This document shows, piece by piece, positions 1-62,815 of a stretch of DNA of 64,000 nucleotides. The notes beneath the pieces are model-generated. The model saw only the letters and a program-made list of their open reading frames with translations. It did no database searches and was not told where the DNA came from. This stretch comes from an uncultured Clostridia bacterium (GTDB lineage: Bacteria; Bacillota; JAAYKD01; CAYOCI01), in the NCBI GenBank assembly GCA_964402415.1, contig CAYOCI010000004.1, forward strand, positions 20,346-84,345. The letters are read 5' to 3'. Position numbers and translations under genes: made by a program. Numbering within the stretch: position 1 is the first letter of the stretch; each line of letters opens with the position of its first letter.

Positions 1-792
1 GGTAGAACCTGTGCCTGTTGTGATAGGCCCCTCATCGAAGAAGGCCATGAGCAGGTCTTCAGCCTCCAGCCGGAGCTGGCCGGTCCACAGCTGCGTGAGA
101 TGATCCCCTCGTTCAAGCTGTTTGCGGTCTACATGGTTCAATGCCAATGTGGCGAGTGGTTCCATGGCGACTGCCTTATGCCGCTGCAACAGGAAACCGT
201 GATAGCGGTCGATATTCGTCAGCCCAATGGCGTCATCACCACCAAGCAGGGCGCGAGCCACTCCATCCACTGCCCCAAGTGTGGGCAGCTAGTCTGGGAG
301 GTCCGTGGGCAGCAGCCCCACCGGTGGCAGCAGGAACTGATGATCAGGCTTCCTCACCCCAGCGAAAAAAGAGCTGAGTTTCTGCGCAGCTATGAAGCAT
401 ATCTGCGGCCCCACCTGAGCGAATGGCCCAGCTTGGCTCTCCGCCCTCGAGGCAAGCGAGAACGTTCGTGGGCCCAACATCCCTATCCGAGGGGCGGGAG
501 CGTCCCCAGCGTTGACGAGATAGGGCGCAACTTCTGGATAGCCGATAAAACGCAAACGACCCTACATCATGTCGCCCAGGAGATCTGCACCAACGAGATC
601 ACCATCAAGGAGATCCTGGGCAACCATATCGCTGAACGCGAGCGAACGCGCACCGAGCGTGAGCACCTCGCGGCGGCTAATGCCGCCGCGAGCCGTCAGC
701 CATCAGGCGTCAGGCATCAGGAGAAGGATGCCCGCGAGGACAAGGCCACCGGATGGCGAGGTCTCTTCGGACTGGGGAAGAAGGGGGATTAG
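1..792 (+). CDS. Hypothetical Cys-rich (putative Zn-binding) protein, 5' truncated by the window edge
   Basis: Frame is open from base 1 (GRTCACCDRPL...) into ORF 100..792; CxxC-like motifs CACCD, CQCGEW and CPKCG. Confidence 0.6.
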   Translation, partial: GRTCACCDRPLIEEGHEQVFSLQPELAGPQLREMIPSFKLFAVYMVQCQCGEWFHGDCLMPLQQETVIAVDIRQPNGVITTKQGASHSIHCPKCGQLVWEVRGQQPHRWQQELMIRLPHPSEKRAEFLRSYEAYLRPHLSEWPSLALRPRGKRERSWAQHPYPRGGSVPSVDEIGRNFWIADKTQTTLHHVAQEICTNEITIKEILGNHIAERERTRTEREHLAAANAAASRQPSGVRHQEKDAREDKATGWRGLFGLGKKGD

Positions 793-924
793 TTAACAAG
801 GGGTCAGACCCCTTGTTAACTAATATTCTCAGGCGCGGTCATGCTGCGCATTCGGTTCTCATCGTCCCAGTGGTTCTCCTTCCCACTCCAAATCAACTGA
901 TGGCTGATGCCTGTTGGCTGATGG
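693..924. repeat. Inverted pair of CATCAGG/CTGATGG-type heptamer arrays enclosing a perfect palindrome
   Basis: 693-720 ccgtcagccatcaggcgtcaggcatcag and 897-924 ctgatggctgatgcctgttggctgatgg; perfect 18-bp inverted repeat at 788-824 (attagttaacaaggggtc-a-gaccccttgttaactaat). Confidence 0.8.
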
Positions 925-968
925 CACCTCCGGGGCCAATGGCCGAGCCATTGGCCCCGGAGGTTTTC

Positions 969-3167
969 ATGCAGCTCCTCGAAGGCACCGTTGAACGCAT
1001 CACCTTCCGCAATGACGAGACCCTCTACACCGTAGCCCGCTTCAAGGTGGGGCGGCGTGAGGGTCCTGCTACCATTGTCGGCAACTTCCCCAGTATCAAT
1101 GTCGGCGAGAGCCTGCGCCTCGAGGGCGAGTGGACCACCCATCCAGAGTATGGTCGCCAATTTAGGGTCAACAAAGTCGAGACCATGATCCCGGCCACTG
1201 TCAATGGCCTGGAACGTTACCTGGGCTCCGGGTTGGTCAAGGGGATCGGACCTAAGACGGCCAAGAAGCTGGTCGAGCGCTTCGGTCTCGACATTCTCGA
1301 TATCATCGAACAGGACCCTCGGCGGCTGACCGAGCTACCCGGCATTAGCGTCAGCAAGGCTCAGCGGATCCAGGCCGCCTACCTCGGGCAGAAAGAGATG
1401 AAGGATGTCTTGGTCTATCTGCAGGGGCACGGCATCAGCGCGACGTATGCGGTGAAGATCTACAAACATTACCGTGATCAGACCATGGCGATCGTCCAGC
1501 AGAACCCTTATCGTCTGGCTGATGAGGTCTTTGGGATAGGGTTCAAGACCGCCGACAAGATCGCTCAGCAGCTGGGCGTCGATCCTAGCTCGCCCCATCG
1601 CCTGGCCAGCGGTCTACAATACGTACTTGGTGAACTGGCCAATGAGGGGCATACCTACGTCCCGGAGGCCGAACTGCTGAACCAAGCCGCCGAAAATCTT
1701 GAGGTTGAGGCGCATCTGTTACAGGAGCCCTTGATCCAGCTGGCAGAGAGACGCCAGATCTTCATCGAATCCGACCTCAACGAGCAGCGGGTCTACCTAG
1801 CCCCCTTCCTCTATGCCGAGGCGGGGGTGGCTCGCTTGCTAAGCACCCTGACCCTGGGCCAGCTTCAGTCGACCCAACTCTCACTGGCTGGTATGGAACG
1901 GATGGTGGAAGAGGAGATCGACCAGGCAGAGAAGGTCCAAGGGATCACCTTTGCCCCCGAGCAGCGCGAGGCGCTGCGCCAGGCACTCAACTCTGGCGTG
2001 GTCGTCATCACCGGCGGCCCCGGAACGGGTAAGACCACCATCGTGCGGGCACTCTTGGAACTATATCAGCTCCGTGGGGCGAAGGTGCTGTTGGCCGCCC
2101 CCACCGGTCGCGCAGCTAAGCGCATGACCGAGGCGACCGGCAGGCCCTCGAAGACGATCCACCGCCTGCTGGAGTACAGCTTCGTTGCCGGTGCGGGGAT
2201 GAACTTCGCCCGCAACGAGGAGAACCCTCTGGAGGCCGACGTGGTGATCCTCGACGAGGTCTCCATGGTCGACCTGCTCCTCATGTACAACTTCCTGAAG
2301 GCGCTACCGCCGTCCTGCCGCCTAGTTCTAGTCGGCGACCGCGACCAGCTACCATCCGTGGGCGCAGGCAACGTGCTGAAAGATATCATCTCCTCTGAGA
2401 CCATCCCCACTGTTACCCTGAAGACTATCTTCCGTCAGGCGCAACAGAGCATGATTGTGGTGAACGCCCACCGTATCAACCAAGGCGAGTTCCCCCTGCT
2501 CAACGACCGCCAGGCTGACTTCTTCTTCATGGAAGAGGAGACCCCCGAGAAGGCGCTGCCCCTGATACTTGACCTGTGTGCTCGGCGGCTGCCTGCCTAT
2601 GCCAAGGTTGACCCGCTGGACGGGATCCAGGTCCTAGCGCCCATGCGTCGCGGGGCTGTTGGAGTGGAGACGCTCAACCATGAGCTACAGCAGGCGCTGA
2701 ACCCGGCCGATGCCCGCCGGAAGCCAGAGCTTAGGGTAGCTGGGACGGTTTACCGTTTGGGCGATAAGGTGATGCAGATCCGCAACAACTACCAGAAGAA
2801 TGTCTTCAACGGCGATATCGGCCGCATCTCTCAGATCGATGACGAGGAGGGTGAGCTGACCGTCGATTTCCCCGAGGCTGAAGGGGTGCACCGCGTCAGC
2901 TATGAGCTGACGGATTTGGACGAGTTGGTCCTCTCCTACGCGGTCTCCGTTCACAAGAGCCAGGGGAGCGAGTATCCCGTGGTGGTCATGCCGGTCATGA
3001 CCCAGCACTTCATGATGCTGCAGCGCAATCTGCTTTACACCGGCATCACCCGCGCCAAGCGTCTGGTGGTCCTGGTCGGCAGCAAGAAGGCGCTAGCCAT
3101 CGCGGTGAGTAACAATCGCGTCGCTGAGCGCTATTCGCGCCTAGCGGAGCGACTGCGATTGAATTAA
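969..3167 (+). CDS. recD2: ATP-dependent RecD-like (RecD2) SF1B DNA helicase
   Basis: N-terminal LEGTVERITFRN, HhH region (GIGPKTAKKLVERFG), Walker A GGPGTGKT, DEVSM, YAVSVHKSQGSEY; GGAGG RBS before ATG 969. Confidence 0.95.
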   Translation: MQLLEGTVERITFRNDETLYTVARFKVGRREGPATIVGNFPSINVGESLRLEGEWTTHPEYGRQFRVNKVETMIPATVNGLERYLGSGLVKGIGPKTAKKLVERFGLDILDIIEQDPRRLTELPGISVSKAQRIQAAYLGQKEMKDVLVYLQGHGISATYAVKIYKHYRDQTMAIVQQNPYRLADEVFGIGFKTADKIAQQLGVDPSSPHRLASGLQYVLGELANEGHTYVPEAELLNQAAENLEVEAHLLQEPLIQLAERRQIFIESDLNEQRVYLAPFLYAEAGVARLLSTLTLGQLQSTQLSLAGMERMVEEEIDQAEKVQGITFAPEQREALRQALNSGVVVITGGPGTGKTTIVRALLELYQLRGAKVLLAAPTGRAAKRMTEATGRPSKTIHRLLEYSFVAGAGMNFARNEENPLEADVVILDEVSMVDLLLMYNFLKALPPSCRLVLVGDRDQLPSVGAGNVLKDIISSETIPTVTLKTIFRQAQQSMIVVNAHRINQGEFPLLNDRQADFFFMEEETPEKALPLILDLCARRLPAYAKVDPLDGIQVLAPMRRGAVGVETLNHELQQALNPADARRKPELRVAGTVYRLGDKVMQIRNNYQKNVFNGDIGRISQIDDEEGELTVDFPEAEGVHRVSYELTDLDELVLSYAVSVHKSQGSEYPVVVMPVMTQHFMMLQRNLLYTGITRAKRLVVLVGSKKALAIAVSNNRVAERYSRLAERLRLN

Positions 3168-3587
3168 GAATTAAGAATGCAGAATTAAGAGTTGGAGAAC
3201 GAGGGCAGTGATGAGCGACAACGTTATCCGGGATAAGAGCAAGGGCTTTGCTCTTAGGGTGATAAAGCTGTATCAGTATCTGAATGAGGAGAAACACGAG
3301 TATGTCCTGTCTAAACAACTGCTGCGTAGCGGAACGAGCATTGGGGCAAATGTCCGTGAAGCAACAAGAGGACAATCAAAACCGGACTTTTACGCCAAGC
3401 TCCATATCGCACTGAAAGAAGCGGATGAAACAGCCTATTGGCTTGAACTGCTTCATGAAAGCGGGTACATGGATGACAAAACCTTTGCCAGTATCAACGC
3501 TGACTGCAACGAGCTGATGTCCATACTCGTTGCCATCCTAAGAACCAAGCACTCCAATTCTTAATTCTTCATTCTTAATTCTTAATT
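3161..3587. mobile_element. Candidate small element: four-helix-bundle gene flanked by 36-bp inverted heptamer (GAATTAA)n arms
   Basis: Left arm 3162-3197 and right arm 3552-3587 are reverse complements with 2 mismatches; the interior looks more AT-rich than the flanking genes. Mobility is inferred. Confidence 0.6.
3208..3564 (+). CDS. Four helix bundle protein (TIGR02436 / 23S rRNA IVS / Avd-like family)
   Basis: 118 aa with family motifs KSKGFALRVIKLY, SKQLLRSGTSIGANVREA, KLHIALKEADETAYWLELL. Confidence 0.92.
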   Translation: MMSDNVIRDKSKGFALRVIKLYQYLNEEKHEYVLSKQLLRSGTSIGANVREATRGQSKPDFYAKLHIALKEADETAYWLELLHESGYMDDKTFASINADCNELMSILVAILRTKHSNS

Positions 3588-3606
3588 TGAAGGGAGGGGA
3601 GGAACG

Positions 3607-4314
3607 ATGTCGGAGACATACGTGACGACCCTCACGAATTTGCTCTTCCCGCCGCGGCAGGTCTGTTCCCTCTGCGGTGATGCCATCGATGATCGTATAG
3701 ATTACGGCGTCTGCCCCGCTTGCCGGATCAAGCTCCCCTATATCGAGGACCCGGTCTGCCCGCGCTGTGGGGAACCGACCGATCATGCTCAGCTCTGCTC
3801 CGACTGCCGTTTGACTGACCACGCCTTTGTCGCATCTCGCTCGCTGTTCAGCTACGAAGGGCTAGGCAAGAAGCTGGTCACCAACCTCAAATTCCGCTTT
3901 CACCCGAGCCTGGCTCGACTATTGGCGGAAATGCTTTACAGCCGGGTCCTCAGTCAACTATCATGGAACTATGACCTGGTTGTCCCGGTCCCCCTCCACT
4001 GGCGCGGGCTCAAGGAGCGTGGCTACAACCAGAGCGAGCTCCTGGCCCGCGCCGTTGGCAGCCTGACATACCGCCCCGTGGTGGATGTCCTGCGTAAGCG
4101 CCACACTGCTGCGCCGCAGCATCACCTGGGCCGTGCCGGACGTTGGACAGCATTGGCCGATAGCTACCACTGCTCGGCGACCCAGGCGGTCAGAGGTAAG
4201 TCGATACTACTCGTCGACGATGTCTACACCACCGGCGCCACTGCCCATTTCTGCACCGAGGCGCTACTAAAGGCTGGCGCTATCTCAGTCCATGTCGTAA
4301 CCATTGCCAGGTAA
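3607..4314 (+). CDS. comFC: ComF family phosphoribosyltransferase-like competence protein with N-terminal double zinc ribbon
   Basis: CSLC/CPAC/CPRC/CSDC motifs, VPVPLH, RGYNQSELLA, LLVDDVYTTGAT. Confidence 0.92.
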   Translation: MSETYVTTLTNLLFPPRQVCSLCGDAIDDRIDYGVCPACRIKLPYIEDPVCPRCGEPTDHAQLCSDCRLTDHAFVASRSLFSYEGLGKKLVTNLKFRFHPSLARLLAEMLYSRVLSQLSWNYDLVVPVPLHWRGLKERGYNQSELLARAVGSLTYRPVVDVLRKRHTAAPQHHLGRAGRWTALADSYHCSATQAVRGKSILLVDDVYTTGATAHFCTEALLKAGAISVHVVTIAR

Positions 4315-4328
4315 GGAGGACAACACCG

Positions 4329-4763
4329 ATGAGTCCATCACCGCAGGATATCCGCAATTGCCCACGCTGTGGGAAAGTCTTCGTGCGCGTCTCCCGTCCC
4401 CTGTGCCCCCAGTGTATTCGTGATGAGGATGAGATGATTGAGAAGGTCAAGGACTACCTGCACGAACACAAGGGCGCCTCTTTGACGGAAGTGGTGGAGG
4501 CAACAGAGGCAGAAGAGGCGCTCGTCCTGCGCCTGATCCGCGAAGGGCGTATCCTCGTCAGCGACGCAAACGTCGCAATCAAATGCGAGCGCTGTAGTCG
4601 TTCGATCTCTGAGGGGCGCTTCTGCAACGCCTGCGCCAGTGAACTCGCCCGCGGACTGATGGGTGGCACAAAGCCCGCTGTGGCACCAAGCACCAGCTAT
4701 GAGCGTAACGCCCGCGTTCATCTGGAAACGCTCAAGAAACGCGATACCACCAACAAGCAATAA
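4329..4763 (+). CDS. yvyF: Flagellar operon protein YvyF-like (TIGR03826-like)
   Basis: RNCPRCGKVF...LCPQC and CERC...GRFCNAC; located between comFC and flgM as in Bacillus. Confidence 0.8.
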   Translation: MSPSPQDIRNCPRCGKVFVRVSRPLCPQCIRDEDEMIEKVKDYLHEHKGASLTEVVEATEAEEALVLRLIREGRILVSDANVAIKCERCSRSISEGRFCNACASELARGLMGGTKPAVAPSTSYERNARVHLETLKKRDTTNKQ

Positions 4764-4764
4764 C

Positions 4765-4791
4765 TAAAGTTTCGCATCCAGATACCGATAA
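4765..4791 (+). promoter_or_regulatory. Sigma-28 (SigD/FliA) promoter for flgM
   Basis: TAAA-N15-ACCGATAA upstream of flgM. Confidence 0.75.
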
Positions 4792-4805
4792 GAAGGGTAG
4801 ATAAG

Positions 4806-4881
4806 AGTCCCTCGCCCCTCGTCCCTCGCCCCTCGTTGATAACCAACTTGTGGACCTGTGGACTTGTGTTCCTGTGGACTC
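4806..4881. repeat. CCCTCGY heptamer array followed by TGTGGAC(T/C) octamer array
   Basis: gtccctcgcccctcgtccctcgcccctcgt (4807-4836); ttgtggacctgtggacttgtgttcctgtggac (from 4848). Confidence 0.8.
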
Positions 4882-4899
4882 GTAAACGAGGTGAGCTCC

Positions 4900-5217: not shown

Positions 5218-5221
5218 AGGG

Positions 5222-5737: not shown

Positions 5738-5836
5738 TGAGACACCAGACACTAGACACTAGAAGTCACGAAACCCGAAGGACCACTTGCATGCTTGTGG
5801 ACTTGTGTTCTTGTGGACTCCAGAGGAGTGAAGCCC

Positions 5837-6316: not shown

Positions 6317-6418
6317 ATCATCTGTTCGCTGCGTTCCTTTTCTCCCCCAATTCCCGATTCATCACTCCCAATTCTTGATTCTTTATTCTGAATTCTTAAT
6401 TTGATCGGGGTGACCACC

Positions 6419-7867: not shown

Positions 7868-8092
7868 CCAATTTGATGTAGGGGCGCCGCCATGCAGCGC
7901 CCGCCATATGGTCTATCGATCACACCACTGAGGGCTGCTCTGTGTCCTGGTGGTATGGCGCTCCACTGCTTGTGGACATGTGAACTTGTGTTCCTGTGGA
8001 CTGTTGGGTCCACTCATCCTACCCTCATCCTTCACCCATAGCCCTTACTGTGGGCTGTGGGCTGCGGGCTGCGGGCAATAGCGGAGGCACTT

Positions 8093-8986
8093 ATGCGCGT
8101 CACCAACTCCATGCTCACCGATGGCTTCATGCGCAACCTGCGCACTAATCTCCAAGGCCTGGACGAGATCCAACGCAAGCTCTCCTCGAAAAAGGAGGTC
8201 AGCCGCCCGTCGGATGATCCTGTCCGTCTGCAGCAGATTCTGAATCTCGATACATCCCTCGACCAGACCGAGCAGTTCCTGCGCAATATCGATAACGCCT
8301 CATCCTATCTCGCCACCACCGAAGGGGCGCTTAGCCAAGCCATGGCTCTGCTCTCCCGTGCTAGTGAATTGGGCACTCGCAGCCTCAACGGCACCAACAA
8401 CCAAGAGGCCATGGAGGCCACCGCCCAAGAGATCAAGCAACTCCTCGAACAGCTGGTCGAGGTGGCCAATACCACCCATACCGGACGCTATGTTTTCGCT
8501 GGGACCGATACATCCACCAAGCCGTACACCATCAGCAGCTTGGCGGTGACCGCCGAGTCCGAAGCGCCTAACGGCAAGATCGAGTATGAAGTCGGTCCAG
8601 GGGTGAAGATGACCATCAATGTCACCGGCCCAGAAGCCTTCGGTGATGGGGCAGACAGTGCCTTTACCGCTCTCCAAGAGCTTGCCGCTGCCATGAGCGC
8701 GGATGATAAGACAGCCATTAGCGCGGCCACGGAGAAGCTGACGATGGCCAGCGACAAGCTGCTGACCTCCCGCACCGACCTGGGAGCGAGGGTGAACCGC
8801 CTGGAAGCGACGGAAGATCGCTACCAGGAAGACCTAATCAATATCAAAGAGCTAAAGTCCAAGTCCGAGGATATCGATCTCGCCAAGGTGATCATGGATC
8901 TGAAGACCCAGGAAAGCGTTTACCAGGCCTCGCTGGCCGCCGGTGCGCGGATCATCCAACCCAGCTTGGTTGACTTCCTACGCTGA
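8093..8986 (+). CDS. flgL: Flagellar hook-associated protein 3
   Basis: MRVTNSM, SRPSDDP, GRYVFAGT, YQASLAAGARIIQPSLVDFLR. Confidence 0.96.
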   Translation: MRVTNSMLTDGFMRNLRTNLQGLDEIQRKLSSKKEVSRPSDDPVRLQQILNLDTSLDQTEQFLRNIDNASSYLATTEGALSQAMALLSRASELGTRSLNGTNNQEAMEATAQEIKQLLEQLVEVANTTHTGRYVFAGTDTSTKPYTISSLAVTAESEAPNGKIEYEVGPGVKMTINVTGPEAFGDGADSAFTALQELAAAMSADDKTAISAATEKLTMASDKLLTSRTDLGARVNRLEATEDRYQEDLINIKELKSKSEDIDLAKVIMDLKTQESVYQASLAAGARIIQPSLVDFLR

Positions 8987-9549
8987 TGCGTATCGGTAGC
9001 CTACAGATCGAGCAGACCTGGGCGCGGATAGGCATGGAACGACAGCGTGGTGGCGGGGTAGAGATGCGGCAACGATCTGCTGAACTGCAGATCCAGCAGG
9101 CCTCTGCCCAGTTGGAGATTACGCCCAACTTCGCCAAGGTGACCATCGACCAGAGCGCCGCTTGGGCTGATGTTGGCTTGGCCGGGAATGTCGACTTCAT
9201 GGCGACGCAGGTACAGGAAGCCCGCGCCGCTGCCCTGGAGGGGATCGGTCGTGTCGCCCAGGCAGGCGATCTGATGATGCGCCAGCGCAACGCCATTCCC
9301 ACCATCGTCGAGCGGGCCTGCTGGCGCGAATACGAGTTCAACTTCGACATGGTCCCCAAGCACCCGCCCAAGGTCGACGTGGTCGACGCTGAGCCGCCCC
9401 AGATTGAGATCACACCCAGTGAGACCCAGATCGACGTGCAGCCCCACAGCCCTGAGATCACCTTCCGCCCCGACGCGCTGAGGATCTACCTCGAGCAGCG
9501 CGAAGCGCTGTCCATCCGCTATCAGCCAGCGCTAGATGCACGGGTGTAG
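8986..9549 (+). CDS. YviE/DUF6470-like flagellar operon protein
   Basis: LQIEQTWARIG, IDQSAAWADVGL, EGIGRVAQAGD; located between flgL and fliW. Confidence 0.7.
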   Translation: MRIGSLQIEQTWARIGMERQRGGGVEMRQRSAELQIQQASAQLEITPNFAKVTIDQSAAWADVGLAGNVDFMATQVQEARAAALEGIGRVAQAGDLMMRQRNAIPTIVERACWREYEFNFDMVPKHPPKVDVVDAEPPQIEITPSETQIDVQPHSPEITFRPDALRIYLEQREALSIRYQPALDARV

Positions 9550-9740: not shown

Positions 9741-9905
9741 GACGACCTAGGGTCGTCCAAACGCATCACAGACCTAATCCACACCTGGTCGGTGTGGATT
9801 TCTCATACATCGCTCCGAACTCCGCAGGTCCCTGCTCAGATCCCCCACTTGTGGACATGTGGACTTGTGTTCTTGTAGACTCTTAACCGACAGGAGGTCT
9901 CCCCC

Positions 9906-17096: not shown

Positions 17097-17098
17097 GA

Positions 17099-17373: not shown

Positions 17374-17398
17374 CTTACACAGAACGGAGTTGACGCAT

Positions 17399-45261: not shown

Positions 45262-45293
45262 GAAGAAAAAGCGACCATATGGTCGCTTTTTCC
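45262..45293. terminator. Bidirectional terminator between convergent deacetylase genes
   Basis: aaaaagcgacc-atat-ggtcgcttttt. Confidence 0.75.
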
Positions 45294-48784: not shown

Positions 48785-48802
48785 GATGCTCGGCCCCGGC
48801 GG

Positions 48803-48957
48803 ACCGCGCTCCGTGCTTCGCCTTTTTACTGAACGAGCTCGACAGCTCGGGATGTCGCCAAACTCGCCTAACGGCTCAGACAGTGGCGACTTCAGTTCCT
48901 CGCTGTCTGCGCTCCCTGAATGATCTCGCAAGGTCGCGCTACGCCCGCTTGGGGCCT
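48803..48957. repeat. About 155-bp dispersed structured repeat, copy 2
   Basis: Homologous to 24411-24567. Confidence 0.85.
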
Positions 48958-49022
48958 GGTCGGTTGGGGACGTTGGACGGTGACCAAGGCCACCGTCAGT
49001 AGCCGCGCAGCCATGCTGCGCT

Positions 49023-49151
49023 CCTGCGTTTGCGCTTTCTCCGCTGAGCTCCGTGCGCGCGGGCGTATGCGATACGCCCCTACAAGGATGGCCCACTTGA
49101 CTTGTAAATGATCAGTCGATTCGCTCGTAGGGGCGCATTGCATACGCCCGC
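49023..49151. repeat. REP doublet, family A, copy 2
   Basis: gggcgtatgcgatacgcccctac...gtaggggcgcattgcatacgcccgc. Confidence 0.85.
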
Positions 49152-49370
49152 AGGTCGACGCAGGAGACGTAAACGCAACACTATCATTCTAGCATACTGT
49201 CGATTAGGCACATATTTCCCGGGAAATCTGTCGTATTTCCCTCGCCATATTTCCCCATTACCTATACTACAAACAATCCCATGGTCGTAAGGCACCCACA
49301 GGCGACTCATGACTTATGACTCATGACTCCCCTGATGGCTGATGCCTGATGACTGATGGCTGGAGGTATC

Positions 49371-52268
49371 ATGTCCAAAGACAAAATCATCATCAAAGGT
49401 GCGCGGCAGCACAACCTGAAGAATATCGACCTGGAGCTGCCGCGCGATCAGCTCACCGTCATCACGGGGCTGAGTGGCTCGGGTAAGTCGTCGCTGGCTT
49501 TCGACACCATCTACGCTGAAGGGCAGCGCCGCTATGTCGAATCGCTGTCGGCGTATGCGCGCCAGTTTCTAGGACAGATGGATAAGCCAGACGTAGATTA
49601 TATCGAAGGGCTCTCGCCCGCCATCTCGATCGACCAGAAGACCACCAGTAAGAACCCTCGGTCGACGGTGGCGACGGTAACAGAGATCTATGACTACCTG
49701 CGCCTGCTCTTTGCTCGCATTGGCCACCCCCACTGTCCGAACTGCGGCAACGAGATCAGCCAGCAGACGGTCGAGCAGATGGTTGACCAGGTGATGACGC
49801 TCCCAGAGCGTACCCGCATCCAGGTGCTTGCTCCGCTAGTGCGTGGGCGCAAGGGCGAGCACCAGAAGGTCTTCGAAGATACCCGCAAGGATGGCTATGT
49901 GCGCGTGCGCGTCGATGGCCAACTGCGTGAGGTCACTGAAGAGATCAAGTTGGAGAAGAACAAGAAACACTCCATTGAGGTCGTCGTCGACCGTATCGTG
50001 ATCAAGCCGGAAGTCGCTCAGCGTTTGGCTGACTCCATTGAGACCGCCATCAAGCTGAGCGGTGGCTTGGTCATCATCGATATCATCGACCAGGACGAAT
50101 GGCTGTTCAGCAGTAGTTTCGCTTGTCCGGACTGCGGCTTCAGCTTTGAAGAGATCTCGCCGCGTATGTTCTCCTTCAACAGCCCTTGGGGTGCATGTCC
50201 GGACTGCACGGGCCTTGGGGTCAATATGGAGATCGACCCCGATCTGATCATCCCGGATCGCAGCCGCTCGATCACCGATGGTGCCATCGATCCCTGGTCC
50301 AGCTCTACCAGCAATTACTATCCACAGATGTTGGAAGCTTTATCGAAGCACTATGACTTCAGCCTGAATACCCCGGTGGACGAGCTGCCAGATGAAATTG
50401 TGCAGGTTATTCTGTACGGCAGCGGTGATCAGAAGATACGTTTCCACTACGAGAACCCATATGGGCGCCAGGCAACTTATGATGCGCGCTTCGAAGGGGT
50501 GATTAGCAATCTCAACCGCCGGTATAAAGAGACTCAGTCTGAGTACATGAGGGAAGAGATCGAGCAATACATGAGCACTAAGCCTTGCCCTACCTGCCAG
50601 GGCGCCCGCCTGAAGAAGGAAGTGCTCTCTGTACTAGTCGCTGGGCGCAATATTGCTGAGGTCAGCAAGTTCTCGATCATTGACGCGCTCAGCTTCTTCC
50701 GTGCACTGACCCTGACCGATCGTGAGAGGATCATTGGCAAGCAGATCCTCAAGGAGATCAATGAACGCCTGGGCTTCTTGGTCAACGTGGGGCTAGACTA
50801 CCTGACCCTCAACCGTGCGTCAGGGACCTTGTCTGGCGGCGAGGCGCAGCGTATCCGCCTGGCCACACAGATCGGTTCCAGCTTGGTGGGTGTGATCTAT
50901 ATCTTGGACGAGCCCAGTATCGGTCTGCATCAGCGCGACAACACCCGTCTGCTTGAGACCTTGAAACGCTTGCGTGATCTGGGCAACACGCTCTTGGTGG
51001 TCGAGCACGATGAGGAGACCATGTGGACCGCCGACCATATCGTTGATATCGGACCCGGTGCCGGGTCTAACGGTGGCCGGGTGGTTGCCCAAGGGTCAGT
51101 GGATGATATCATGCGGGTGGAGGAGAGCTGGACCGGACAGTATCTGAGTAGGCGCCGTGAGATTCCGATTCCTGAGGTGCGGCGTCAACCCAATGGTAAG
51201 TGGATCGAGGTACGTGGGGCGCGCGAGAATAACCTCAAGAACCTCAATGCCCGCTTCCCCCTAGGTGTATTTACCTGTGTAACCGGTGTCTCCGGCTCCG
51301 GCAAGAGCAGCTTGGTCAATGAGATCCTGCACAAGAAACTGGCGCATCTCATCCAGCGTGCCCGGGCCCGTGCCGGCGAGCATGATGAGATTATTGGGGT
51401 GGAGTACCTGGACAAAGTGATCGACATTGATCAATCGCCGATCGGGCGCACCCCGCGCTCCAACCCAGCTACGTATACTGGCCTGTTCAATGATATTCGT
51501 GACCTGTATGCTTCCACCAATGAGGCCAAGGTGCGCGGCTACAAGCCGGGACGCTTCAGCTTCAACGTGCGTGGAGGCCGTTGTGAGGCGTGTAAGGGCG
51601 ATGGGATCATCAAGATCGAGATGCATTTCCTGCCCGACGTCTATGTCCCCTGTGAGGTCTGCAAGGGACAACGCTACAGTCGCGAGACCCTGGAAGTCAA
51701 GTATAAGGGCAAGAGCATCGCCGAGGTTCTAGATATGACGGTGGAGGAAGCCCTGGACTTCTTCCAAAACCTGCCGCGCATTCAGCGCAAGGTACAGACC
51801 TTATATGATGTAGGTTTGGGCTACGTGCGCCTCGGACAACCTGCTACCACGCTCTCGGGCGGTGAGGCGCAGCGCGTGAAGTTGGCAACCGAGCTCAGTC
51901 GCCGCAGCAATGGGAAGACGCTCTATATCCTTGATGAGCCGACCACTGGCTTGCATATCGCCGATATCCACAAGCTCCTTGAGGTTCTGCAACGGCTGGT
52001 GGACGCTGGTGACACGGTACTGGTGATCGAGCACAACCTCGATGTAATCAAGACCGCCGACCATATCATCGACATGGGCCCCGAGGGGGGCGACCGCGGC
52101 GGACAGATCGTTGCGGTGGGCACTCCCGAGCAGGTGGCCGAGGTGGCCGAGTCTTACACCGGCCAGTATCTGAAGAAGGTGCTGAGTGGGGAAGGGTTCT
52201 CTAAACAGCCCACAGCCCACAGCCCACAGCCCACAGTGGGGGCGACGGGAGAGGACGACGATCTATAG
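49371..52268 (+). CDS. uvrA: Excinuclease ABC subunit A
   Basis: [28 protein letters not shown] twice, [10 protein letters not shown], Zn fingers. Confidence 0.99.
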
Positions 52269-52273
52269 CACGA

Positions 52274-52307
52274 AGAAACCACAGGGGGTTGCCCCTGTGG
52301 TTTCTTG
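52274..52307. terminator. Terminator-like hairpin after uvrA
   Basis: aagaaaccacagggg-gttg-cccctgtggtttctt. Confidence 0.7.
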
Positions 52308-52413
52308 TTACTGTGGATTGCACTCCGTGAAGGATTTGCCACGCTGCCCGCGAATTGCTTAACGGTTAACATACTACGGTGGGCTGCGGGCTCACGAAGT
52401 GCAGGTGATCTTC

Positions 52414-53583: not shown

Positions 53584-53594
53584 GCCTGGCGAAC

Positions 53595-53758
53595 TCCCTA
53601 GTCCCTAGTCCCCAGTCCCTAGTCCCTAGCGGGGAACCTGGACTGCTGAACTCGCGGGCTTACTGCTCATTTCAGAAGTGTCCCGTCTCGATTCGGTGAC
53701 CCTTGGGACCGGTAGTCTTATCTGCCTACTAGGGACTAGGGACCAGGGACTAGGGACT
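53595..53758. repeat. Inverted GTCCCTA/TAGGGAC heptamer pair
   Basis: ctccctagtccctagtccccagtccctagtccctag versus ctactagggactagggaccagggactagggact. Confidence 0.85.
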
Positions 53759-53776
53759 GCTAGACCGGAGGTCTGC

Positions 53777-55148: not shown

Positions 55149-55275
55149 CTTAATCTGACTGACAAAGAAACCAGAAACTGACTAGTGACAAACCGTCGCG
55201 GATGCTTTATCATTAGGAATGTCAAAACTACAAAATCCTACGGAACGCGTTAGCGATTGTGTTTTTACCTACAGA

Positions 55276-55457
55276 GAGTTTTCGGGAGCTGGAGTTCCGG
55301 TGGTGCTGATAAGCCTTCACTCGATGCCATGCATTTGAGTCGAAGGAAATCAAAAACCCGACGGACAGGCGCCCACCTGCAAGAGCAGGTCTAAAAACTC
55401 AGTAGCGACGGTTTAGTGGGATAGCGAAAGCCAATGGTGTGAACCATTGGCTTTTTT
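55276..55457 (+). ncRNA. Candidate structured leader RNA ending in an intrinsic terminator
   Basis: Pairings GAGTTTT/AAAAACTC, TCGGG/CCCGA, CCTTCACTC/GAGTCGAAGG, ACCTGC/GCAGGT; terminator aaagccaatgg...ccattggctttttt. Family not recognised. Confidence 0.45.
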
Positions 55458-55721
55458 GTGCTTGTACGGCTTTAAACGTAGGAAGATTACGGATTGGGAT
55501 GGAACTATTACTCGGAGTCAAAAGTCATAAGTCATAAATTAGTAGTTCATCTGCCGATCCGCGGCACCAAAAGTGATGAACGGTCGCTAAGCCTGCGACT
55601 CCTACATAGATCTTTTGATAGGCAGCCATAGCTCACGAGTCATGTCTGAAAGCAATGGTGCCGATAAGATGATTAGGGGCAATATCCCATCATGTTGTCT
55701 CTTTCCGCAAAGGAGGACCCC

Positions 55722-57959: not shown

Positions 57960-58119
57960 GAACTACAGAGACACTAGACCCAAGACCCAAGACACTAGAT
58001 GAACGAAGCAATCCTGATGAGCAACACGTGAAAGACGCCCCGCCATCGGCAGGGGCGTCTTCGCTTTCGATCTCCTGGTTGTTAGTGAGACTGTCGAAGA
58101 ACCCGGGCTTGATCACCTG

Positions 58120-58246
58120 TGCGTTTGCGCTCTCTACGCTGTGCTTTGGTCGCGTGGGCGTATGCAATACGCCCCTACGCAGTGGCCTGCATGCCATCCA
58201 GCGCATACGGTTGAGTTGGTTGTAGGGGCGTATTGCATACGCCCGC
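58120..58246. repeat. REP doublet, family A, copy 3
   Basis: gggcgtatgcaatacgcccctac...gtaggggcgtattgcatacgcccgc. Confidence 0.85.
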
Positions 58247-58356
58247 GGGTCGCCGCGAGGTGACCTAACCGAAACAGGGGACTAATCCTCAGGCGTAGCA
58301 GATGCTTTTTCGACAGCCTCTCCAGTGTCTTGGGTCTGATATGTATCGAGCGCAGC

Positions 58357-59343
58357 TCACTGCGCTCGATACATATCCAGTATTAGCCGATCATGCTCGG
58401 GGTCGAGGAGCCATTCGCAGTCACTAATCTGTTGGCCGTCGCTGGGGGTTATGGTAAGCGTCAGTGCCCCTTTGACTTGCGTCAGCTTCACCAGGCGGAT
58501 GGTTGGGTCGTTCAAGGGAAGCTCGCGACTCTCTGCTCCCATGGATATACCATCAAGCTGTCCCAGCCAGTTCCCTGAGAGGGGGTCATAGGTCAGCATC
58601 CTTGGTGTGTAGGGCTCTGCTGTGATCGATGATAGGTAGAGGATCAACCTCACCCGGTCGGGATAAGCGATGGTAGCGGCTCGTCTCAGGTAATGGGTTC
58701 CCGAGGCCTGATAGGGGCGATGGTCTGCGGGCAACTCGACGCTGGCTGTTTGTGTGACGGCGTCCCAAGCGACGGATGCCCCCACCCATCCGGCTAAGCT
58801 GCGTAATGGTAGGTAGAGTGTGCCTTGGCACTGTCTGGCTGTGGCGCGGCCCGCTGCCTCGAGGGAGGTAGATCCACGCTGTCCCGCCACGCTCACCGGC
58901 CAGACCTCACTGCGGAAGAGCAGATCGACGCCGTTGTCTGTGATCTTGCTGCCAATCCCGAGGATCTCCACCGCAGCGTCAATCGGGAAGTAGAAGTGAC
59001 CATCAGCTAGCATCGGGGGAGGACTAAGTAGCTGATACTGCCCATCGACTACCAGGTTAACCTCTTGGTTGACCGCTGAGAGCAGCGCGTTGGCGGTATT
59101 GCCATCGACCCAGCCGGTGTCGGGAAGATGATAGCGTTGCTGGAAGAGTTTTACTGCATCCTGGGTATTATAGTCGTAGTGCTCAGTGATCTCGCCTTTA
59201 TACAGGCCAAGTTGTCTGAGAAAGCTCTGTAGGTAGTAGACATCCTCGCCAACCATCTCTGGGGTGATCACGCGGTAGTTGAAGTGGGCAGCCTGGACTC
59301 CGTTGGCGGAGAGTAGCACCACCATGACCATGAGTACCACCAA
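58357..59343 (-). CDS. Exported peptidoglycan-binding protein with copper-amine-oxidase-N-terminal-like (stalk) domain
   Basis: GEDVYYLQSFLRQLGLY...TQDAVKLFQQRYHLPDTGWVD; LYLPLRSLAGWVGASVAWD. Start codon uncertain. Confidence 0.75.
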   Translation of the reverse strand: MVVLMVMVVLLSANGVQAAHFNYRVITPEMVGEDVYYLQSFLRQLGLYKGEITEHYDYNTQDAVKLFQQRYHLPDTGWVDGNTANALLSAVNQEVNLVVDGQYQLLSPPPMLADGHFYFPIDAAVEILGIGSKITDNGVDLLFRSEVWPVSVAGQRGSTSLEAAGRATARQCQGTLYLPLRSLAGWVGASVAWDAVTQTASVELPADHRPYQASGTHYLRRAATIAYPDRVRLILYLSSITAEPYTPRMLTYDPLSGNWLGQLDGISMGAESRELPLNDPTIRLVKLTQVKGALTLTITPSDGQQISDCEWLLDPEHDRLILDMYRAQ

Positions 59344-59615
59344 GCGCCTCGCGAGCTCTCTCGAGCGCGGATGACAAGCTCGGCTGCAGAACCCGATACT
59401 CCGTACCACCACCGGTGGCTGGTGGCTGGTGGCTGTGGACTCGGCCGCAAGGCCGTTGGTCTGTGGACTGTGGTCTGTGGACTCTTTGAACTTGTGGACT
59501 TGTGGTCTTGTGGACTCCACTGTCACAAGGCATACACCTCCATCAGCATTCTTGACCACCTTGAGGATCGGCAAACATAGGCTTCCTTCTGCTATAATGG
59601 GATGGGGGTGATGGC

Positions 59616-61478
59616 GTGCGTTTCGAAGAGGAACTGAAGATGCTTTCCGACAAGCCTGGGGTGTACCTGATGAAGGATGAAGAGGGGACAATCATCTACG
59701 TAGGGAAGGCGGTTTCGCTGCGGAACCGTGTTCGCTCCTACTTCCAGTCCTCCCGAAACCACAGCGTGAAGACCCAGGCGTTGGTTCGACAGATCGCCAG
59801 CTTCGAAACCATAGTCACCGATAACGAGGTCGAGGCGCTCAACCTCGAGAGCAACCTGATCAAGCAGTATCGCCCTCGCTATAATGTAAAGCTGAAAGAC
59901 GACAAACATTACCCATATCTGAAAGTGACAGTATACGAGCCTTTTCCTCGGCTCGTCATCGCCCGCCAGGTCAAGAAGGACGGGGCGCGCTATTTCGGTC
60001 CTTACCCAAACTCGGGAGCGGTACATGAAACCATAAAACTGCTGCGCAGGCTATTTCCCATCCGCAACTGCAAGAAGGAGCTAACTGGCGAGCCTGACGG
60101 ACGGGTCTGTCTGAATTTCCACATTAAGCGATGCATCGGGCCTTGACAGGGGAACTCAGTGAAGGCAGAGTATGATCACCTGATTCGCCAGGTCCTCATG
60201 TTTCTTGACGGTAAGCAAGATGAACTCATCCGTGAGCTGGAGACGAAGATGCAACAGGCGGCTGAGGAACTTGACTTTGAGCGTGCTGGCGAGCTCCGTG
60301 ACCAGGTTCAAGCGGTACGACGCATCACGGAGCGTCAGAAGATGGACTCTGGGGGTCTTGAAGACCGTGATGTTATCGCGATGGCGCGCGGTATCGATGA
60401 AGCAAACGTGCAGGTCTTCTTCATTCGCAATGGCAAAATGGTCGGACGCGAGAACTTCTTGCTTAGCGGCACTGAGGGGCAAGAGCGTGGGGAGGTCCTA
60501 GCTTCTTTCGTCAAGCAATACTATAGTGCCGCGACATTTGTCCCCAAAGAGCTGCTCCTTCAAGAAGAGGTCGATGAGGTCGAACTGCTGGAGAACTGGC
60601 TCTCACAGAAACGGGGCTATCGTGTGAGCATCTCCACGCCCAAACGGGGTGAGAAACGCGAGTTGGTGGAGATGGTGGCCAAGAACGCCTTGATGACGCT
60701 GACCCAGTCAGCGGAACGAGTGCGCAGCAGCTCCGAACAGGGACGCCTGGCCATGGAAGAGTTGAGGTACTACCTCAACCTGAAAGAGCTGCCGATGCGA
60801 ATTGAGGCCTATGATATCTCCAATATCCAGGGCAGTCAGACGGTCGCCTCCATGGTGGTCTTCTCCGGGGGGATGCCAGACCGCAATCAGTACCGTCGTT
60901 TCCGTATCAAGACCGTTGAGGGTCCCAATGACTTTGCCAGTATGCAGGAGGTCATCACCAGACGCTTCTCCCATGCGCGCAAGGAACAAGAGGCGATCGC
61001 CAACGGGGAGCTGGTGGCGGATAAGGCCAAGTTTGCACCTCTACCTGATCTGGTCCTAATCGACGGCGGCAAGGGACAACTAAGTGCTGCGCGTGAGATC
61101 ATGCGCCAGTTGGGTTTTGCTGACGTTGCCACTATTGGCTTAGCGAAGCAGTTTGAGTGGGTCTACGTGGAAGGAAAATCCGATCCCATCATTCTGCCTG
61201 ACCGTTCACGACCCCTATACCTTATTCAGCGGGTTCGCGACGAGGCACACCGCTTTGCCATCACCTATCACCGCACCATTCGTGGTCATGAGAGCCTGCA
61301 GTCTGCGCTGCGCGAGATACCCGGGATCGGCCCTACACGGCAAAAAGGCCTGCTTAAGCACTTCACCAGCCTGGAGAAGATCGCTGGTGCCGAGGTTCAA
61401 GAGCTCGCCGAGGTTCCGGGGATGAACGTGGCCGCTGCTGAAGAGGTATATCGTTTCTTTCGAAAGAAAGTAGAGTGA
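59616..61478 (+). CDS. uvrC: Excinuclease ABC subunit C, interrupted by an in-frame TGA at 60144-60146
   Basis: GIY-YIG domain (PGVYLM, IYVGKA), UVR domain, RIEAYDISN, PDLVLIDGGKGQ, RDEAHRFAI, HhH; both ORF parts lie in the same frame. May be a pseudogene, a recoded gene or an assembly error. Confidence 0.9.
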
Positions 61479-61654
61479 ATTGACCGAGCCCGCAGCCCAC
61501 AGCCCACAAAGGGACGGCTATCTCGGGGTGCGGAGCGACTCTCGAGGCCAGTTGAAAATACGATATGATACCGTTGCCCTTAGGGAGTCCACTGGCGGGC
61601 CCCTGGTCCTCAGACGGATCGCTCAAAACGGTTAACGGTACAGGGAGAGGTTTC

Positions 61655-62503
61655 ATGAGCCGTATTGCCATCGTCACCGACAGCACTGCGTATCTACCGG
61701 ATGGATACGCCCAGGAGCACCATGTACACATCCTACCATTGATGGTCGTCAGCGGCGATCGTTCCTATCTCGAAGGGGTTGACCTGAGCAACGACGATTT
61801 CTACTGTATGCTCCAGGCTGGTCAGGAGCTGCCGACCACTTCGCAGCCTGGCCTGGGAGCAACCGCTACGCTCTTTGAGCGCTTGGTAGCAGACCACTAC
61901 GATGAGGCTGTTTGCATTCATCTATCAAGCGGGATTAGCGGGACATATGCCACTACCGTGACCGCTGGCGGGATGATCCCAGGCATCAAGGTACAGGTCT
62001 TTGACTCGGAGATCAGCACCATGGTCCAGGGTTTCTATGTTCAGGAAGCAGTGCGTATGGTGGAAGCGGGCTGCGACAGCCAGGCGGTGATGGCGCATCT
62101 AGATGCGCTGAAGCGCAGGATGAGAGCGTACTTTGTGGTTGATGATCTGAACAACCTTTACAAAGGTGGTCGCCTACCCAAGATCGCCAGTACTGTAGGT
62201 GGCGCTCTACAGATCAAACCGATCCTTCATTTTCGCGAAGGCAAAATCGTGCCGTGCGAGTTGGCCAGAACCATGCGGCGGGCGATGAGCAACATTGTCG
62301 AGAGGTTCGAGAGTGATGCTCAGTGTGGTCAGCCGATGCGTGCGGTCCTGGTCCACGGGCACGCGCCCGAAGAGGCTGCTGCCCTGATGGAAGAGATCAG
62401 CGCTCGTTACCCGCATGTCGAGGTGGTCATCAGCGAGATAGGGCCCGTGATCGGAACCCATCTGGGGGCGGGCTCACTTGGTTTAGGCTGGTATATCAAA
62501 TAG
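61655..62503 (+). CDS. degV: DegV family fatty-acid-binding protein
   Basis: IAIVTDSTAYLP, PTTSQPG, IHLSSGISGTY, NLYKGGR, IKPIL, GPVIGTHLGAG. Confidence 0.94.
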   Translation: MSRIAIVTDSTAYLPDGYAQEHHVHILPLMVVSGDRSYLEGVDLSNDDFYCMLQAGQELPTTSQPGLGATATLFERLVADHYDEAVCIHLSSGISGTYATTVTAGGMIPGIKVQVFDSEISTMVQGFYVQEAVRMVEAGCDSQAVMAHLDALKRRMRAYFVVDDLNNLYKGGRLPKIASTVGGALQIKPILHFREGKIVPCELARTMRRAMSNIVERFESDAQCGQPMRAVLVHGHAPEEAAALMEEISARYPHVEVVISEIGPVIGTHLGAGSLGLGWYIK

Positions 62504-62815
62504 GAGCGGCAATGCCGCTCCTATTTGATATACCAGTAGCCCAAAGCCCAGCGACCTACGGTCGAGCCCAAAGGCCAACGTAAGGGACAAGGGGCAACGA
62601 GTACAGCGCATCTAAGGACCTTCGTGCAGTCGCGAAGTCATGCGACGGTTTGGTGTGTTCGATAGGCGATAGGATGAATATGGCACCCGCGTCAGCCATC
62701 GGATAGTCGATGATGGGGCAGGAATAGCTCGGACTCATCTCGAAACCTAGGAGTCCAAACACCTTTGGGCTTTGGCCTTTGGACTCCGCGTACTACGCGG
62801 CGAGGGGGGAAGACG

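Follow-up and report, generated by a model that had tools for sequence, protein, structure and literature searches.

Short tandemly repeated repetitive (STRR) sequences made of heptamers were reportedly described in heterocystous cyanobacteria by Mazel et al. in 1990, and structured nif intergenic regions are said to have been reported by Jackman and Mulligan in 1995. The units of STRR1 to STRR3 in heterocystous cyanobacteria are CCCCAGT, TTGGTCA and CAACAGT. To our knowledge, neither tandem heptamers (STRRs and long simple-sequence repeats, SSRs) nor the intervening sequences (IVSs) of rRNA genes have an accepted origin or function, although both were discovered more than 30 years ago, and the four-helix-bundle 'IVS protein' is among the most abundant unexplained small bacterial proteins that we know of. 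The Coxiella IVS contains three tandem GACAGAT repeats, whose number varies between strains, and has a 28-bp terminal stem that is cleaved by RNase III at the first repeat (PMC4990558). Here we analyzed a 64,000-nt stretch of DNA from an uncultured Clostridia bacterium (contig CAYOCI010000004.1, positions 20,346 to 84,345; hereafter the window), in which many gene junctions carry tandem arrays of heptamers, frequently as inverted pairs. We lean towards reading these arrays as the arms of small hairpin (foldback) insertion elements, IVS-like or STRR-like and mostly without an open reading frame (ORF). The original prediction had proposed a family of stem-loop insertion elements, with the arrays as their scars or their ends; our data support such a family, with the arrays as element ends and not as scars, through presence/absence and swaps of family in relatives, dispersed copies that are nearly identical, and the IVS-protein gene contained in one copy.

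The window has a GC content of 57% and a Bacillus-type gene order (recD2-comFC-flgM-flgN-flgK-flgL-fliW-csrA-flagellin-fliD-fliS-hpf-secA-prfB ... ftsEX-ctpB-uvrBA-uvrC), and its host belongs to a flagellated lineage of Bacillota. There are few close relatives: matches to FtsX were found at 90%, 86% and 77% identity, the next standing at 54%, where the named matches are Negativicutes. The control set consisted of 80 unrelated loci (1.39 Mb) from a UvrB scan of genome contigs, the best of which reached 71% among the matches listed. A contig assembled independently from run DRR182650 (L171) matches window positions 1367-4833 (3.5 kb) with 100% identity, arrays included, and since it comes from a separate run the arrays are real DNA and not an assembly artefact. 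This contig terminates within an array, an example of how the arrays break short-read assemblies.

Tandem Repeats Finder reported dozens of period-7 arrays in the window. Our own detector found 40 that were at least 17 nt long, compared with 0-3 (mean about 0.5) in 20 first-order Markov shuffles, and a stricter detector found 35 compared with 0-1 in shuffles; at other periods the stricter detector gave 15 arrays (period 5), 7 (period 6), 1 (period 8) and none (periods 9-11). The control loci contain 1.9 period-7 arrays per 64 kb. Each array in the window has 2.3-5.9 copies of a 7-nt unit, arranged head to tail and exceeding the length expected by chance, as long SSRs do. About 21 junctions have both a left and a right arm, and these elements make up 8.4% of the window. 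Left arrays start 0-15 nt past the upstream stop codon or overlap it, while right arrays end 13-35 nt ahead of the start codon, directly 5′ of the Shine-Dalgarno sequence (SD). The stop codon used by recD2, tagA and ORF 27032-28690 is supplied by the array, and csaB, uvrA, the DUF5317 gene and ORF 100-792 run into or through an array, which adds repeat-encoded residues to their products. All of the downstream genes carry a strong SD of their own.

The 19 left/right pairs that had been listed from the sequence alone were all located where they had been placed, with a largest offset of about 10-20 nt for the arm given at 37276, which we put at about 37285-37315. Polarity was also as predicted, one strand of each family being found on the left throughout (AGSCRTC, AGAATTA, AGTCCCT/CGCCCCT, AGACACY, AGCCCRC/AGCCCAA, AGTCATR and the 8-mer AGTCCACA), and 38 of the 40 arrays follow the rule, the exception being a cluster at 59412-59516. 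The rule is also valid for minus-strand genes in their own sense, as seen at the start of rnj, the start and stop of the deacetylase gene and the stop of the peptidoglycan (PG)-binding gene. The additional suggestion that most left units can be written as AG-N5 does not discriminate for AGTCCCT and AGACACT, whose complementary strand phases as AG-N5 as well. Many left arms open with GAGTC(C) and many right arms close with (G)GACTC; the density of GAGTCC and GGACTC in spacers is 6-15 times that in genes, a figure that is confounded because both motifs belong to the units. Two further rules were rejected: that left arrays supply stops in three frames, which 0 of 22 left and 5 of 23 right arrays do, and that the left arm is A+C-rich, which is broken by the AGTCATG family. 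The frame left open by the left arrays showed no consistent relation to the upstream gene.

When whole junctions were folded, the minimum free energy (MFE) structure paired both arms in all 19 junctions tested, with stems of 13-35 bp and loops of 45-430 nt. The mean duplex energy was -41.8 kcal/mol for cognate arms compared with -17.2 kcal/mol for non-cognate arms, and in 14 cases the cognate partner ranked first or second of the 19. Where one arm has a variant unit, the other arm mirrors it, for instance AGAATGA by TTCATTC and AGTCCCC by ACCAGGG. The window as a whole contains 65 inverted-repeat clusters, compared with 7-13 in shuffles.

We compared the junctions with orthologous ones from relatives L081 and L172 (both GCA_964540595.1), L083, L084 and L173. 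The spacers are not stable: the same junctions are empty, filled or occupied by another family in close relatives. Between ftsX and the M23 peptidase gene, the window has a 100-nt AGGCRTC element, L081 a 29-nt gap, L083 an AGTCATA palindrome and L084 a plain 56-nt spacer. An insert of about 290 nt separates tktN and tktC, the two transketolase halves, which overlap in L081, and csaB and tagA are about 200 nt apart in the window compared with 4 nt in L081. Set against L081, these three junctions bear out the earlier claim that the arrays sit where genes are normally tightly packed, but the claim fails for uvrB-uvrA, which are about 470 nt apart in L081 too. Exchange of family was seen at several sites. 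Between recD2 and comFC, the GAATTAA arms and gene of the window are replaced by an AGTCCCA pair in L172 and a CGAGGGG arm in L173; between ctpB and the PDZ gene, the AGCCCRC pair of the window corresponds to a matched pair of 8-mers (AGTCCACA/TGTGGACT) in L081; and on the 5′ side of rnj, the AGCCCGC hairpin corresponds to an AAGCCCA hairpin in L081. Directly upstream of the ftsE SD there is CTGTGGG in the window, nothing in L081 and a CTTTGGC array in L083, and the flgM junction of L173 carries an AAGGCCA/CTTTGGG pair. In the gene upstream of recD2, the array in the C-terminal coding region is AGSCRTC in the window (691-721) and AGACACC in L172 (7377-7406), with the tail past the array conserved. 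At tagA-tktN and PDZ-deacetylase, L081 has a pair of the same family as the window around a different loop, and between the M23 gene and ctpB a loop insert resembling a miniature inverted-repeat transposable element (MITE) is missing from L081. Another contig of the L081 genome has the same unit families in the same positions.

Some arms also recur within the window. The 30-mer GTCCCTCGCCCCTCGTCCCTCGCCCCTCGT, which has a 14-nt higher-order unit, has copies at 4807 and 26493, and position 17345 carries its reverse complement with one difference. The junctions labelled J2 (3161-3587) and J15 (33134-33286) have the arm GAATTAAGAATGMAGAATTAAGAGTTGGAG in common, and J22 (45222-45535) and J28 (57969-58340) share GACCCAAGACACTAGA. 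Since independent slippage would not reproduce such orders of variant units, arms must have been copied between loci, and the arrays behave as a dispersed, fast-turning-over element family and not as independent products of slippage.

One copy of the element contains a gene. At J2, GAATTAA arms at 3161-3197 and 3552-3587 (36 nt, 94% complementary; plus strand) enclose a four-helix-bundle gene at 3208-3564 on the plus strand, and the recD2 stop codon TAA (3165-3167) lies in the first unit of the left arm. The 118-aa product is annotated as a '23S rRNA intervening sequence protein' (PF05635, E=1.3e-28; TIGR02436, E=6e-32), and its closest solved structure is PDB 2RLD (E=1e-36), the crystal of which contains five chains. 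The GC content of J2 is 44%, compared with 60% in its flanks, and the closest homologues of the protein, at 70-76% identity, come from Clostridia and Bacteroidales. J2 thus looks horizontally acquired, because its protein is far nearer to outsiders than are the housekeeping proteins of the lineage (FtsX 54%). In unrelated gut Clostridia, homologous genes are found in tight junctions of restriction and defence operons with inverted heptamer arrays on both sides. At the metagenomic loci L085-L090, the four-helix-bundle genes examined outside rRNA occupy narrow gaps within restriction-modification or defence-type operons and run in the same direction as their neighbours; these operons include methyltransferase-ResIII helicase and SNF2-methyltransferase operons and one with a TIR-domain gene.

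A metagenome scan for the four-helix-bundle gene yielded 80 loci, of which 76 had both flanks. Flanking inverted repeats scoring at least 15 were present in 70 of these 76, compared with a maximum of 13.5 in shuffles and 0 of 107 shifted-position controls. After dereplication they were found in 44 of 50 loci; lag 7 was the dominant lag in the arms of all 44, and in 41 of the 44 the autocorrelation at this lag was at least 0.6. The earlier proposal that four-helix-bundle genes are bracketed by such arms therefore holds in metagenomes, with period 7 throughout; no example of the GxxExxY genes also named in that proposal was found in the window. The units at the metagenomic loci vary (CGGAATT, AGAATTA, GACAATT, ACAAATT, AGTTGAG, AGTTCAT and others) and mostly have an AATT core, and in gene-bearing elements the purine-rich arm stands ahead of the ORF. 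Before dereplication, seven of the 76 loci lay inside 23S rRNA genes, where the ORF has the same orientation as the rRNA and the arms are of the CAATTGA type, and the other 69 lay outside rRNA. The arm unit tracks the protein phylogeny (Spearman 0.32, p=3e-24; unit distance 0.7 between close and 2.9 between distant proteins), indicating that the arms belong to the element. Our literature searches turned up no paper that extends heptamer arms to four-helix-bundle genes generally, Coxiella being the single case found, and the general link between these genes and period-7 inverted arms was probably undescribed before.

These findings suggest the following course of events for hairpin insertion elements. 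Each arm would consist of 3-6 heptamers, or in some cases octamers, in tandem, inverted relative to the other arm, and the elements would fill the only slot that is tolerated, from a stop codon to the next SD, sometimes trimming or extending the last codons of the upstream gene. The observed placement and the tolerated array-encoded tails fit such insertions, because these would survive only where genes stay unbroken. Several unit families may have spread as near-identical copies, with quick gain, loss and exchange among close relatives, and slippage would be the source of changes in copy number. Over time the loops would gather other small palindromic repeats; the REP-like GTAG palindromes, the MITE and the terminator-like palindromes found in them suggest later nested insertions that push the arms apart. 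The copy at 3161-3587 would have retained its IVS-type four-helix-bundle gene, the remaining copies being ORF-less like short IVSs and STRR pairs. Where the arms are co-transcribed, their predicted pairing into a stem of 13-35 bp would seal off the spacer, and RNase III, by analogy with IVSs, would cut this stem, thereby rendering the insertion harmless to the flanking cistrons. The polarity may come from selection on translation signals, with G-rich, SD-like arms placed beside the SD and C-rich, anti-SD-like arms past the stop codon. A bolder and rather unlikely extension is that four-helix-bundle IVS proteins and heptamer-armed hairpins constitute one class of mobile element across phyla, inserted in rRNA helices or the stop-to-SD slot. 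The protein would then read the heptamers and provide mobility or maintenance, while ORF-less IVSs, STRR pairs and the arrays of the window would be non-autonomous derivatives, and the stop-centred duplications described below would be by-products of the same hairpin-generating way of copying.

Several observations weigh against hairpin insertion. The window and the related loci contain no transposase, we saw no other sign of mobility, rnc does not lie in the window, and no target-site duplication was visible at the insert boundaries of ftsX-M23, tktN-tktC or csaB-tagA. The native GC-rich families (AGTCCCT, AGCCCRC, AGGCATC and AGACACY) do not have the (R)AATT core that nearly all four-helix-bundle arms contain, so that only architecture argues for their kinship with IVS-type elements. 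A tblastn search with 120 four-helix-bundle proteins against the window and its relatives revealed no remnants in other spacers (best E=0.05, at 25850-25930). Right boundaries such as GGAYTCGTA are kept in the window and L173 while the arrays inside them differ, which in-situ turnover of units fits as well as replacement does. Finally, J10, J17, J22, J23, J25 and J28 enclose terminators or promoters or separate convergent or divergent genes, a layout that a compact hairpin insertion could account for only if the loop had received further insertions afterwards. The arms of these six pairs are not expected on one transcript and yet are equally well matched. Since they match as well as operonic pairs do, complementarity is not kept solely by selection on an RNA stem in cis, and a copying process at the DNA level is implied.

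This last point bears on a distinctly less probable account, in which the arrays are SSRs born by slippage at gene boundaries and complementarity of the arms is maintained because selection favours an RNA stem, which would serve mRNA stability or processing, or couple the stop codon to the SD. Among the long SSRs of many bacteria, heptamers are the most over-represented class (Mrazek 2007, as cited in PMC4679880 and PMC4692102), and this account is favoured by unit families that differ by a single base (CTTTGGG, CTGTGGG and CTGCGGG), the junction boundaries shared by the window and L173 around differing arrays, and the joint change of both arms at rnj-ftsE between the window and L081. The left arm at the stop, the right arm directly 5′ of the SD and the stems predicted in all junctions would likewise suit a selected RNA structure. 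However, this account does not lead one to expect 30-nt arrays with an identical order of higher-order units at three loci, clean inserts of 100-290 nt where the junctions of relatives are tight, or an architecture that travels together with a horizontally mobile gene. Nor would an RNA stem explain the equal match of arms that have no common transcript (convergent J22 and J28, divergent J23 and the terminator-bearing J25), and coupling of stop and SD is at odds with the SD that every downstream gene has for itself.

We think it unlikely that the arrays are sites for a sequence-tolerant protein that reads 7-nt periodicity as part of an RNA- or DNA-level regulatory network, of which CsrA-type binding to GGA would be one version. 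The TAACTGA repeats of Beggiatoaceae have been proposed to be such a network and stand directly upstream of the SD, as the right arrays of the window do (PMC4679880); (TAACTGA)n can also be written (CTGATAA)n, which resembles the CTGATGG family. GGA occurs in several right units and in the terminal GGACTC, and 8-mer arrays precede four flagellar genes near fliW and csrA, but a single reader would be needed for at least seven unrelated unit sequences, and housekeeping genes of all kinds are flanked. The four-helix-bundle family does include Avd, a nucleic-acid-associated protein of diversity-generating retroelements; however, no candidate binding protein was identified, and the presence of arrays varies among relatives that are 80-90% identical, which would be odd for a regulon. 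The flagellar 8-mer arrays, composed of CTTGTGGA(C) with repeated GGA, lie at 4846-4880, 5794-5819, 7969-8005 and 9847-9881, ahead of flgM, the second flgN-like gene, flgL and fliW, respectively. They may have a flagellar-specific use, such as CsrA sites, or may be just another arm family.

Very improbable, lastly, are footprints or scars of repeated transposon insertion and excision, or flanks of invertible DNA switches: the inverted repeats of IVSs have long been suggested to be transposition remnants (PMC4990558), and palindromes that are inverted duplicates of host gene ends and resemble products of a templated hairpin-generating event abut several arms, but no transposase or invertase gene lies nearby, the arms are long (20-45 nt), regular and near-identical across loci, unlike footprints, and the number of pairs around essential genes, 21, is much higher than phase switches would account for. 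Invertible switches were rejected, with loop orientation unchanged between the window and L081 where both hold the pair (J15 and J21).

The arrays and pairs that we read as arms of hairpin elements are distributed along the whole window. At J1 (691-925), four AGSCRTC units (691-721) lie in the 3′ end of ORF 100-792 and four CTGATGS units (897-925) precede the recD2 SD, with 27 left-right base pairs in the MFE fold. J3 (4806-4882) has two copies of GTCCCTCGCCCCTC on the left and an array of the 8-mer CTTGTGGA before flgM on the right, with the termini GAGTCC...GGACTC, and at J4 (5740-5819) 3.4 copies of AGACACY begin 2 nt past the flgN stop and a right 8-mer array precedes the second flgN-like gene. 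The flagellar genes that follow have right-type arrays on the plus strand: an unpaired one of 4.6 ATTCTTR units (GAATTAA family) directly before flgK (6371-6401), two before flgL (7969-8076; the 8-mer CTTGTGGA at 7969-8005 and four CTGYGGG units at 8048-8076), and an unpaired 8-mer array before fliW (9847-9881). J8 (17097-17372; CCCTCGC/CGAGGGG) lies between hpf and ORF 17390, and an unpaired left-type array of the 8-mer AGTCCACA is found past the stop of ORF 17390-18514 (18535-18566, plus strand). J10 (21556-21880; AGCCCGC/CTGTGGG) extends from the DUF5317 gene to secA, with an extra internal right arm at about 21685-21700 and a terminator-like hairpin and a promoter-like site in its loop.

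J11 (25828-25968; GCCCGAAGGCATCAGGCATCAG/CTGATGCCTGATGCCTGATGGCTTCGGGC) is located downstream of prfB, a gene (about 24682-25804, with the ORF start near 24682) in which the usual +1 programmed frameshift site is apparent, CTCTTTGACC near 24756. J12 (26492-26992) has 35-nt arms, AGTCCCTCGCCCCTCG... and ...CGAGGGACTAGGGAC, around a 430-nt loop with REP-like palindromes. At J13 (28675-28913), three GAGTCAT units on the left are the source of the TGA stop of ORF 27032-28690, and on the right ATGACTT fragments give way to a CTGATGS array ahead of the next gene. J14 (32196-32395; AGACACC/CTGGTGT) lies between csaB and tagA, and the csaB ORF reads through its left arm. J15, between tagA and tktN, has GAATTAA arms, no ORF and the same order of variant units as J2, with the tagA stop inside the array. 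J16 (34118-34409), between the transketolase halves, combines different families, AGTCCCT on the left and ACTYATG on the right, with the termini GAGTC...GACTC. J17 (37160-37631) consists of an AGCCCGC hairpin (37160-37185 and about 37296-37315) by the minus-strand rnj start and a CTGTGGG right arm (37612-37631) before the ftsE SD. J18 (39222-39317; AGGCRTC/CTGATGG) is the 100-nt insert that separates ftsX from the M23 peptidase gene, and at J19 (40496-40845) the left side is a single AGGCATC unit, the right side a CTGATGG-type array (40810-40845) before ctpB, and the loop contains the MITE-like insert. From ctpB to the PDZ gene, J20 (42296-42503) has AGCCCRC on the left and 4.3 copies of CTGCGGG on the right. 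The arms of J21 (43751-43990) are AGTCCCT and CKAGGGG plus GACTAGGGACTCG.

J22 separates convergent genes; its arms, GGACCCAAGACACTAGA and TCTAGTGTCTTGGGTCC, match perfectly over 17 nt within a CTAGTGT array, and the loop contains a bidirectional terminator. J23 (46563-46779; AGTCATA/ATGACTY) separates the divergent deacetylase gene and uvrB, with a conserved uvrB promoter in the loop. Two abutting right-type arrays precede uvrA on the plus strand (49304-49362; GACTCAT, 3.7 copies, and CTGATGG, 4.4 copies), and a search for a left arm found none. At J25 (52205-52393), the uvrA ORF includes 4.6 copies of ACAGCCC in its 3′ end, GGTGGGCTGCGGGCT forms the right arm, and an intrinsic terminator lies in the loop. 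The arms of J26 (53593-53759) are five copies of TCCCTAG and 4.4 of ACTAGGG, with a variant unit mirrored between them. An unpaired left-type AGTCATA array (55516-55537, plus strand) is situated 89 nt downstream of the 6S RNA gene (55232-55426; Rfam RF00013, 62.5 bits), which was the sole RNA family in an Rfam scan of the window, with none in any spacer and no rRNA; the window also has no tRNAs. J28, between convergent genes, has AGACMCW and AGTGTCTTGGGTCT, with 14 nt matching perfectly. The exceptional cluster at 59412-59516 contains three GGTGGCT units and TGTGGACT arrays in the 'wrong' orientation upstream of the uvrC promoter; they fall either in the 5′ leader of the PG-binding gene, which is on the minus strand, or in the part that encodes its N terminus. 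A left-type AGCCCRC array (61487-61508, plus strand) begins 8 nt past the stop of uvrC; this gene (59616-61478) is present as two ORFs (59616-60146 and 60159-61478) with an in-frame TGA near 60146 between them, and may be a pseudogene or reflect sequencing error or recoding. J31 (62539-62786; AGCCCAA/CTTTGGS...GGACTC) runs from degV to dnaD. In the loops other than that of J2 there were no credible ORFs and no convincing GxxExxY gene, the one G..E..Y match being in an unsupported 48-aa ORF.

The window is also rich in other palindromes, with 1.4 long tight hairpins per 10 kb compared with 0.38 in the control loci. Perfect or near-perfect palindromes with a stop codon at the centre, arms of 16-24 nt and a loop of 1-4 nt are found at 25786-25828, 35454-35486, 45531-45570, 58338-58377 and 62488-62536, where one arm is the last codons of the host gene (prfB, rnj, the deacetylase gene, the PG-binding gene and degV). 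Four stop-centred palindromes abut a heptamer arm. Those at rnj and the deacetylase gene are absent from L081 and are therefore the lineage's own inverted duplication. Further such palindromes are located at 788-824, at 926-964, which takes in the recD2 SD, and at 19398-19446, which takes in a gene start. GTAG palindromes resembling repetitive extragenic palindromes (REPs) or bacterial interspersed mosaic elements (BIMEs), GCGGGCG...CGCCCCTAC / GTAGGGGCG..., form inverted pairs at 26581-26657, 49059-49151 and 58156-58244, with single copies near 7876, 17300, 18633 and 43800; such palindromes are situated within loops of heptamer pairs. The heptamer arms themselves were considered as REPs or BIMEs, which are imperfect GTAG/CGTC palindromes of 20-40 bp associated with RAYT, and this was rejected, as the arms do not have that structure and the GTAG palindromes are separate. 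The MITE-like element, with the ends GGGGTCAGGCACC...GGTGCCAGACCCC, occupies 40503-40650 in the M23-ctpB spacer, and the same family is present upstream of uvrB in L081 (about 16690-16800). The stops of secA and uvrB are both followed by a stretch of about 200 nt (24394-24580 and 48785-48990) that is homologous between the two sites, either a small RNA or one more dispersed repeat of intergenic regions.

The arrays have practical consequences, since they shift annotated stops and starts, and proteins such as UvrA and CsaB acquire tails encoded by the repeats. Four-helix-bundle genes are almost universally flanked by period-7 inverted arms, in rRNA and much more often outside it. This raises the questions of whether the protein binds the arms, whether RNase III excises the elements from mRNAs, and whether STRR-like arrays are non-autonomous copies.

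Compared with known systems, the elements resemble the 23S rRNA IVSs of Coxiella burnetii and Leptospira, with their S23p ORF, in having an inverted-repeat stem of about 28 bp with heptamer arms around an optional PF05635 ORF, in their co-orientation with the host transcript and in their signs of horizontal transfer. They differ in that the copies in the window lie between protein genes or by the 6S RNA gene and not in rRNA helices (Rfam), that about 20 of the 21 pairs are without an ORF, the PF05635/TIGR02436 ORF being present in one copy only, and that most units are GC-rich without an AATT core; moreover, excision by RNase III is established only for rRNA IVSs. The resemblance to STRRs noted in the original prediction is correct in kind. 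Like STRRs, the arrays form several intergenic heptamer families, often as inverted stem-loop pairs, in spacers that are highly variable between close relatives, and STRR1, written AGTCCCC, matches AGTCCCT of the window at 6 of 7 positions; a Nostoc control locus (L080) contains (AGTCCCC)n and an inverted heptamer pair that brackets a csbD-like gene (8511-9098). The units in the window nevertheless differ and the host is not a cyanobacterium, and we know of no description for STRRs of the density of about 21 pairs per 64 kb, the strict stop-to-SD placement or the link with four-helix-bundle genes. The elements have the MITE traits of terminal inverted repeats (TIRs), many dispersed copies and presence/absence polymorphism. 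The Correia elements of Neisseria are transcribed small intergenic MITEs with a TA target duplication, and their TIRs, which are not heptamers, form hairpins that are cut by RNase III. Small size, intergenic position, hairpin-forming termini, presence/absence polymorphism and co-transcription with neighbours are shared with these, whereas the arms in the window are tandem heptamers, and no target duplication or cognate transposase was found. Other heptamer repeats include TAACTGA in Beggiatoaceae (PMC4679880), GGGAATC in Xanthomonas and GGGGAYT in Nostoc (PMC4692102) and the heptanucleotide elements of Geobacter metallireducens (PMC2700814). Like the arrays in the window, these have period 7, are intergenic and often a few nucleotides from a start codon, vary in relatives and are sometimes inverted; however, they have one dominant unit per genome and are mostly direct, whereas the window has at least seven families, mostly in matched inverted pairs. 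Inverted heptamer pairs at gene junctions are also present in a Clostridia metagenome-assembled genome (MAG; L028, 619-757) and in Desulfonema (L060, 2249-2455), and a Selenomonadaceae MAG (L055) has compact AGGAACT/AGTTCCT hairpins spanning from stop codon to SD (18244-18328 and 21714-21789). The finding is a variant of the heptamers known as STRRs or long SSRs and of the IVSs, and the window unites the features of both in one architecture, at very high density and outside the cyanobacteria.

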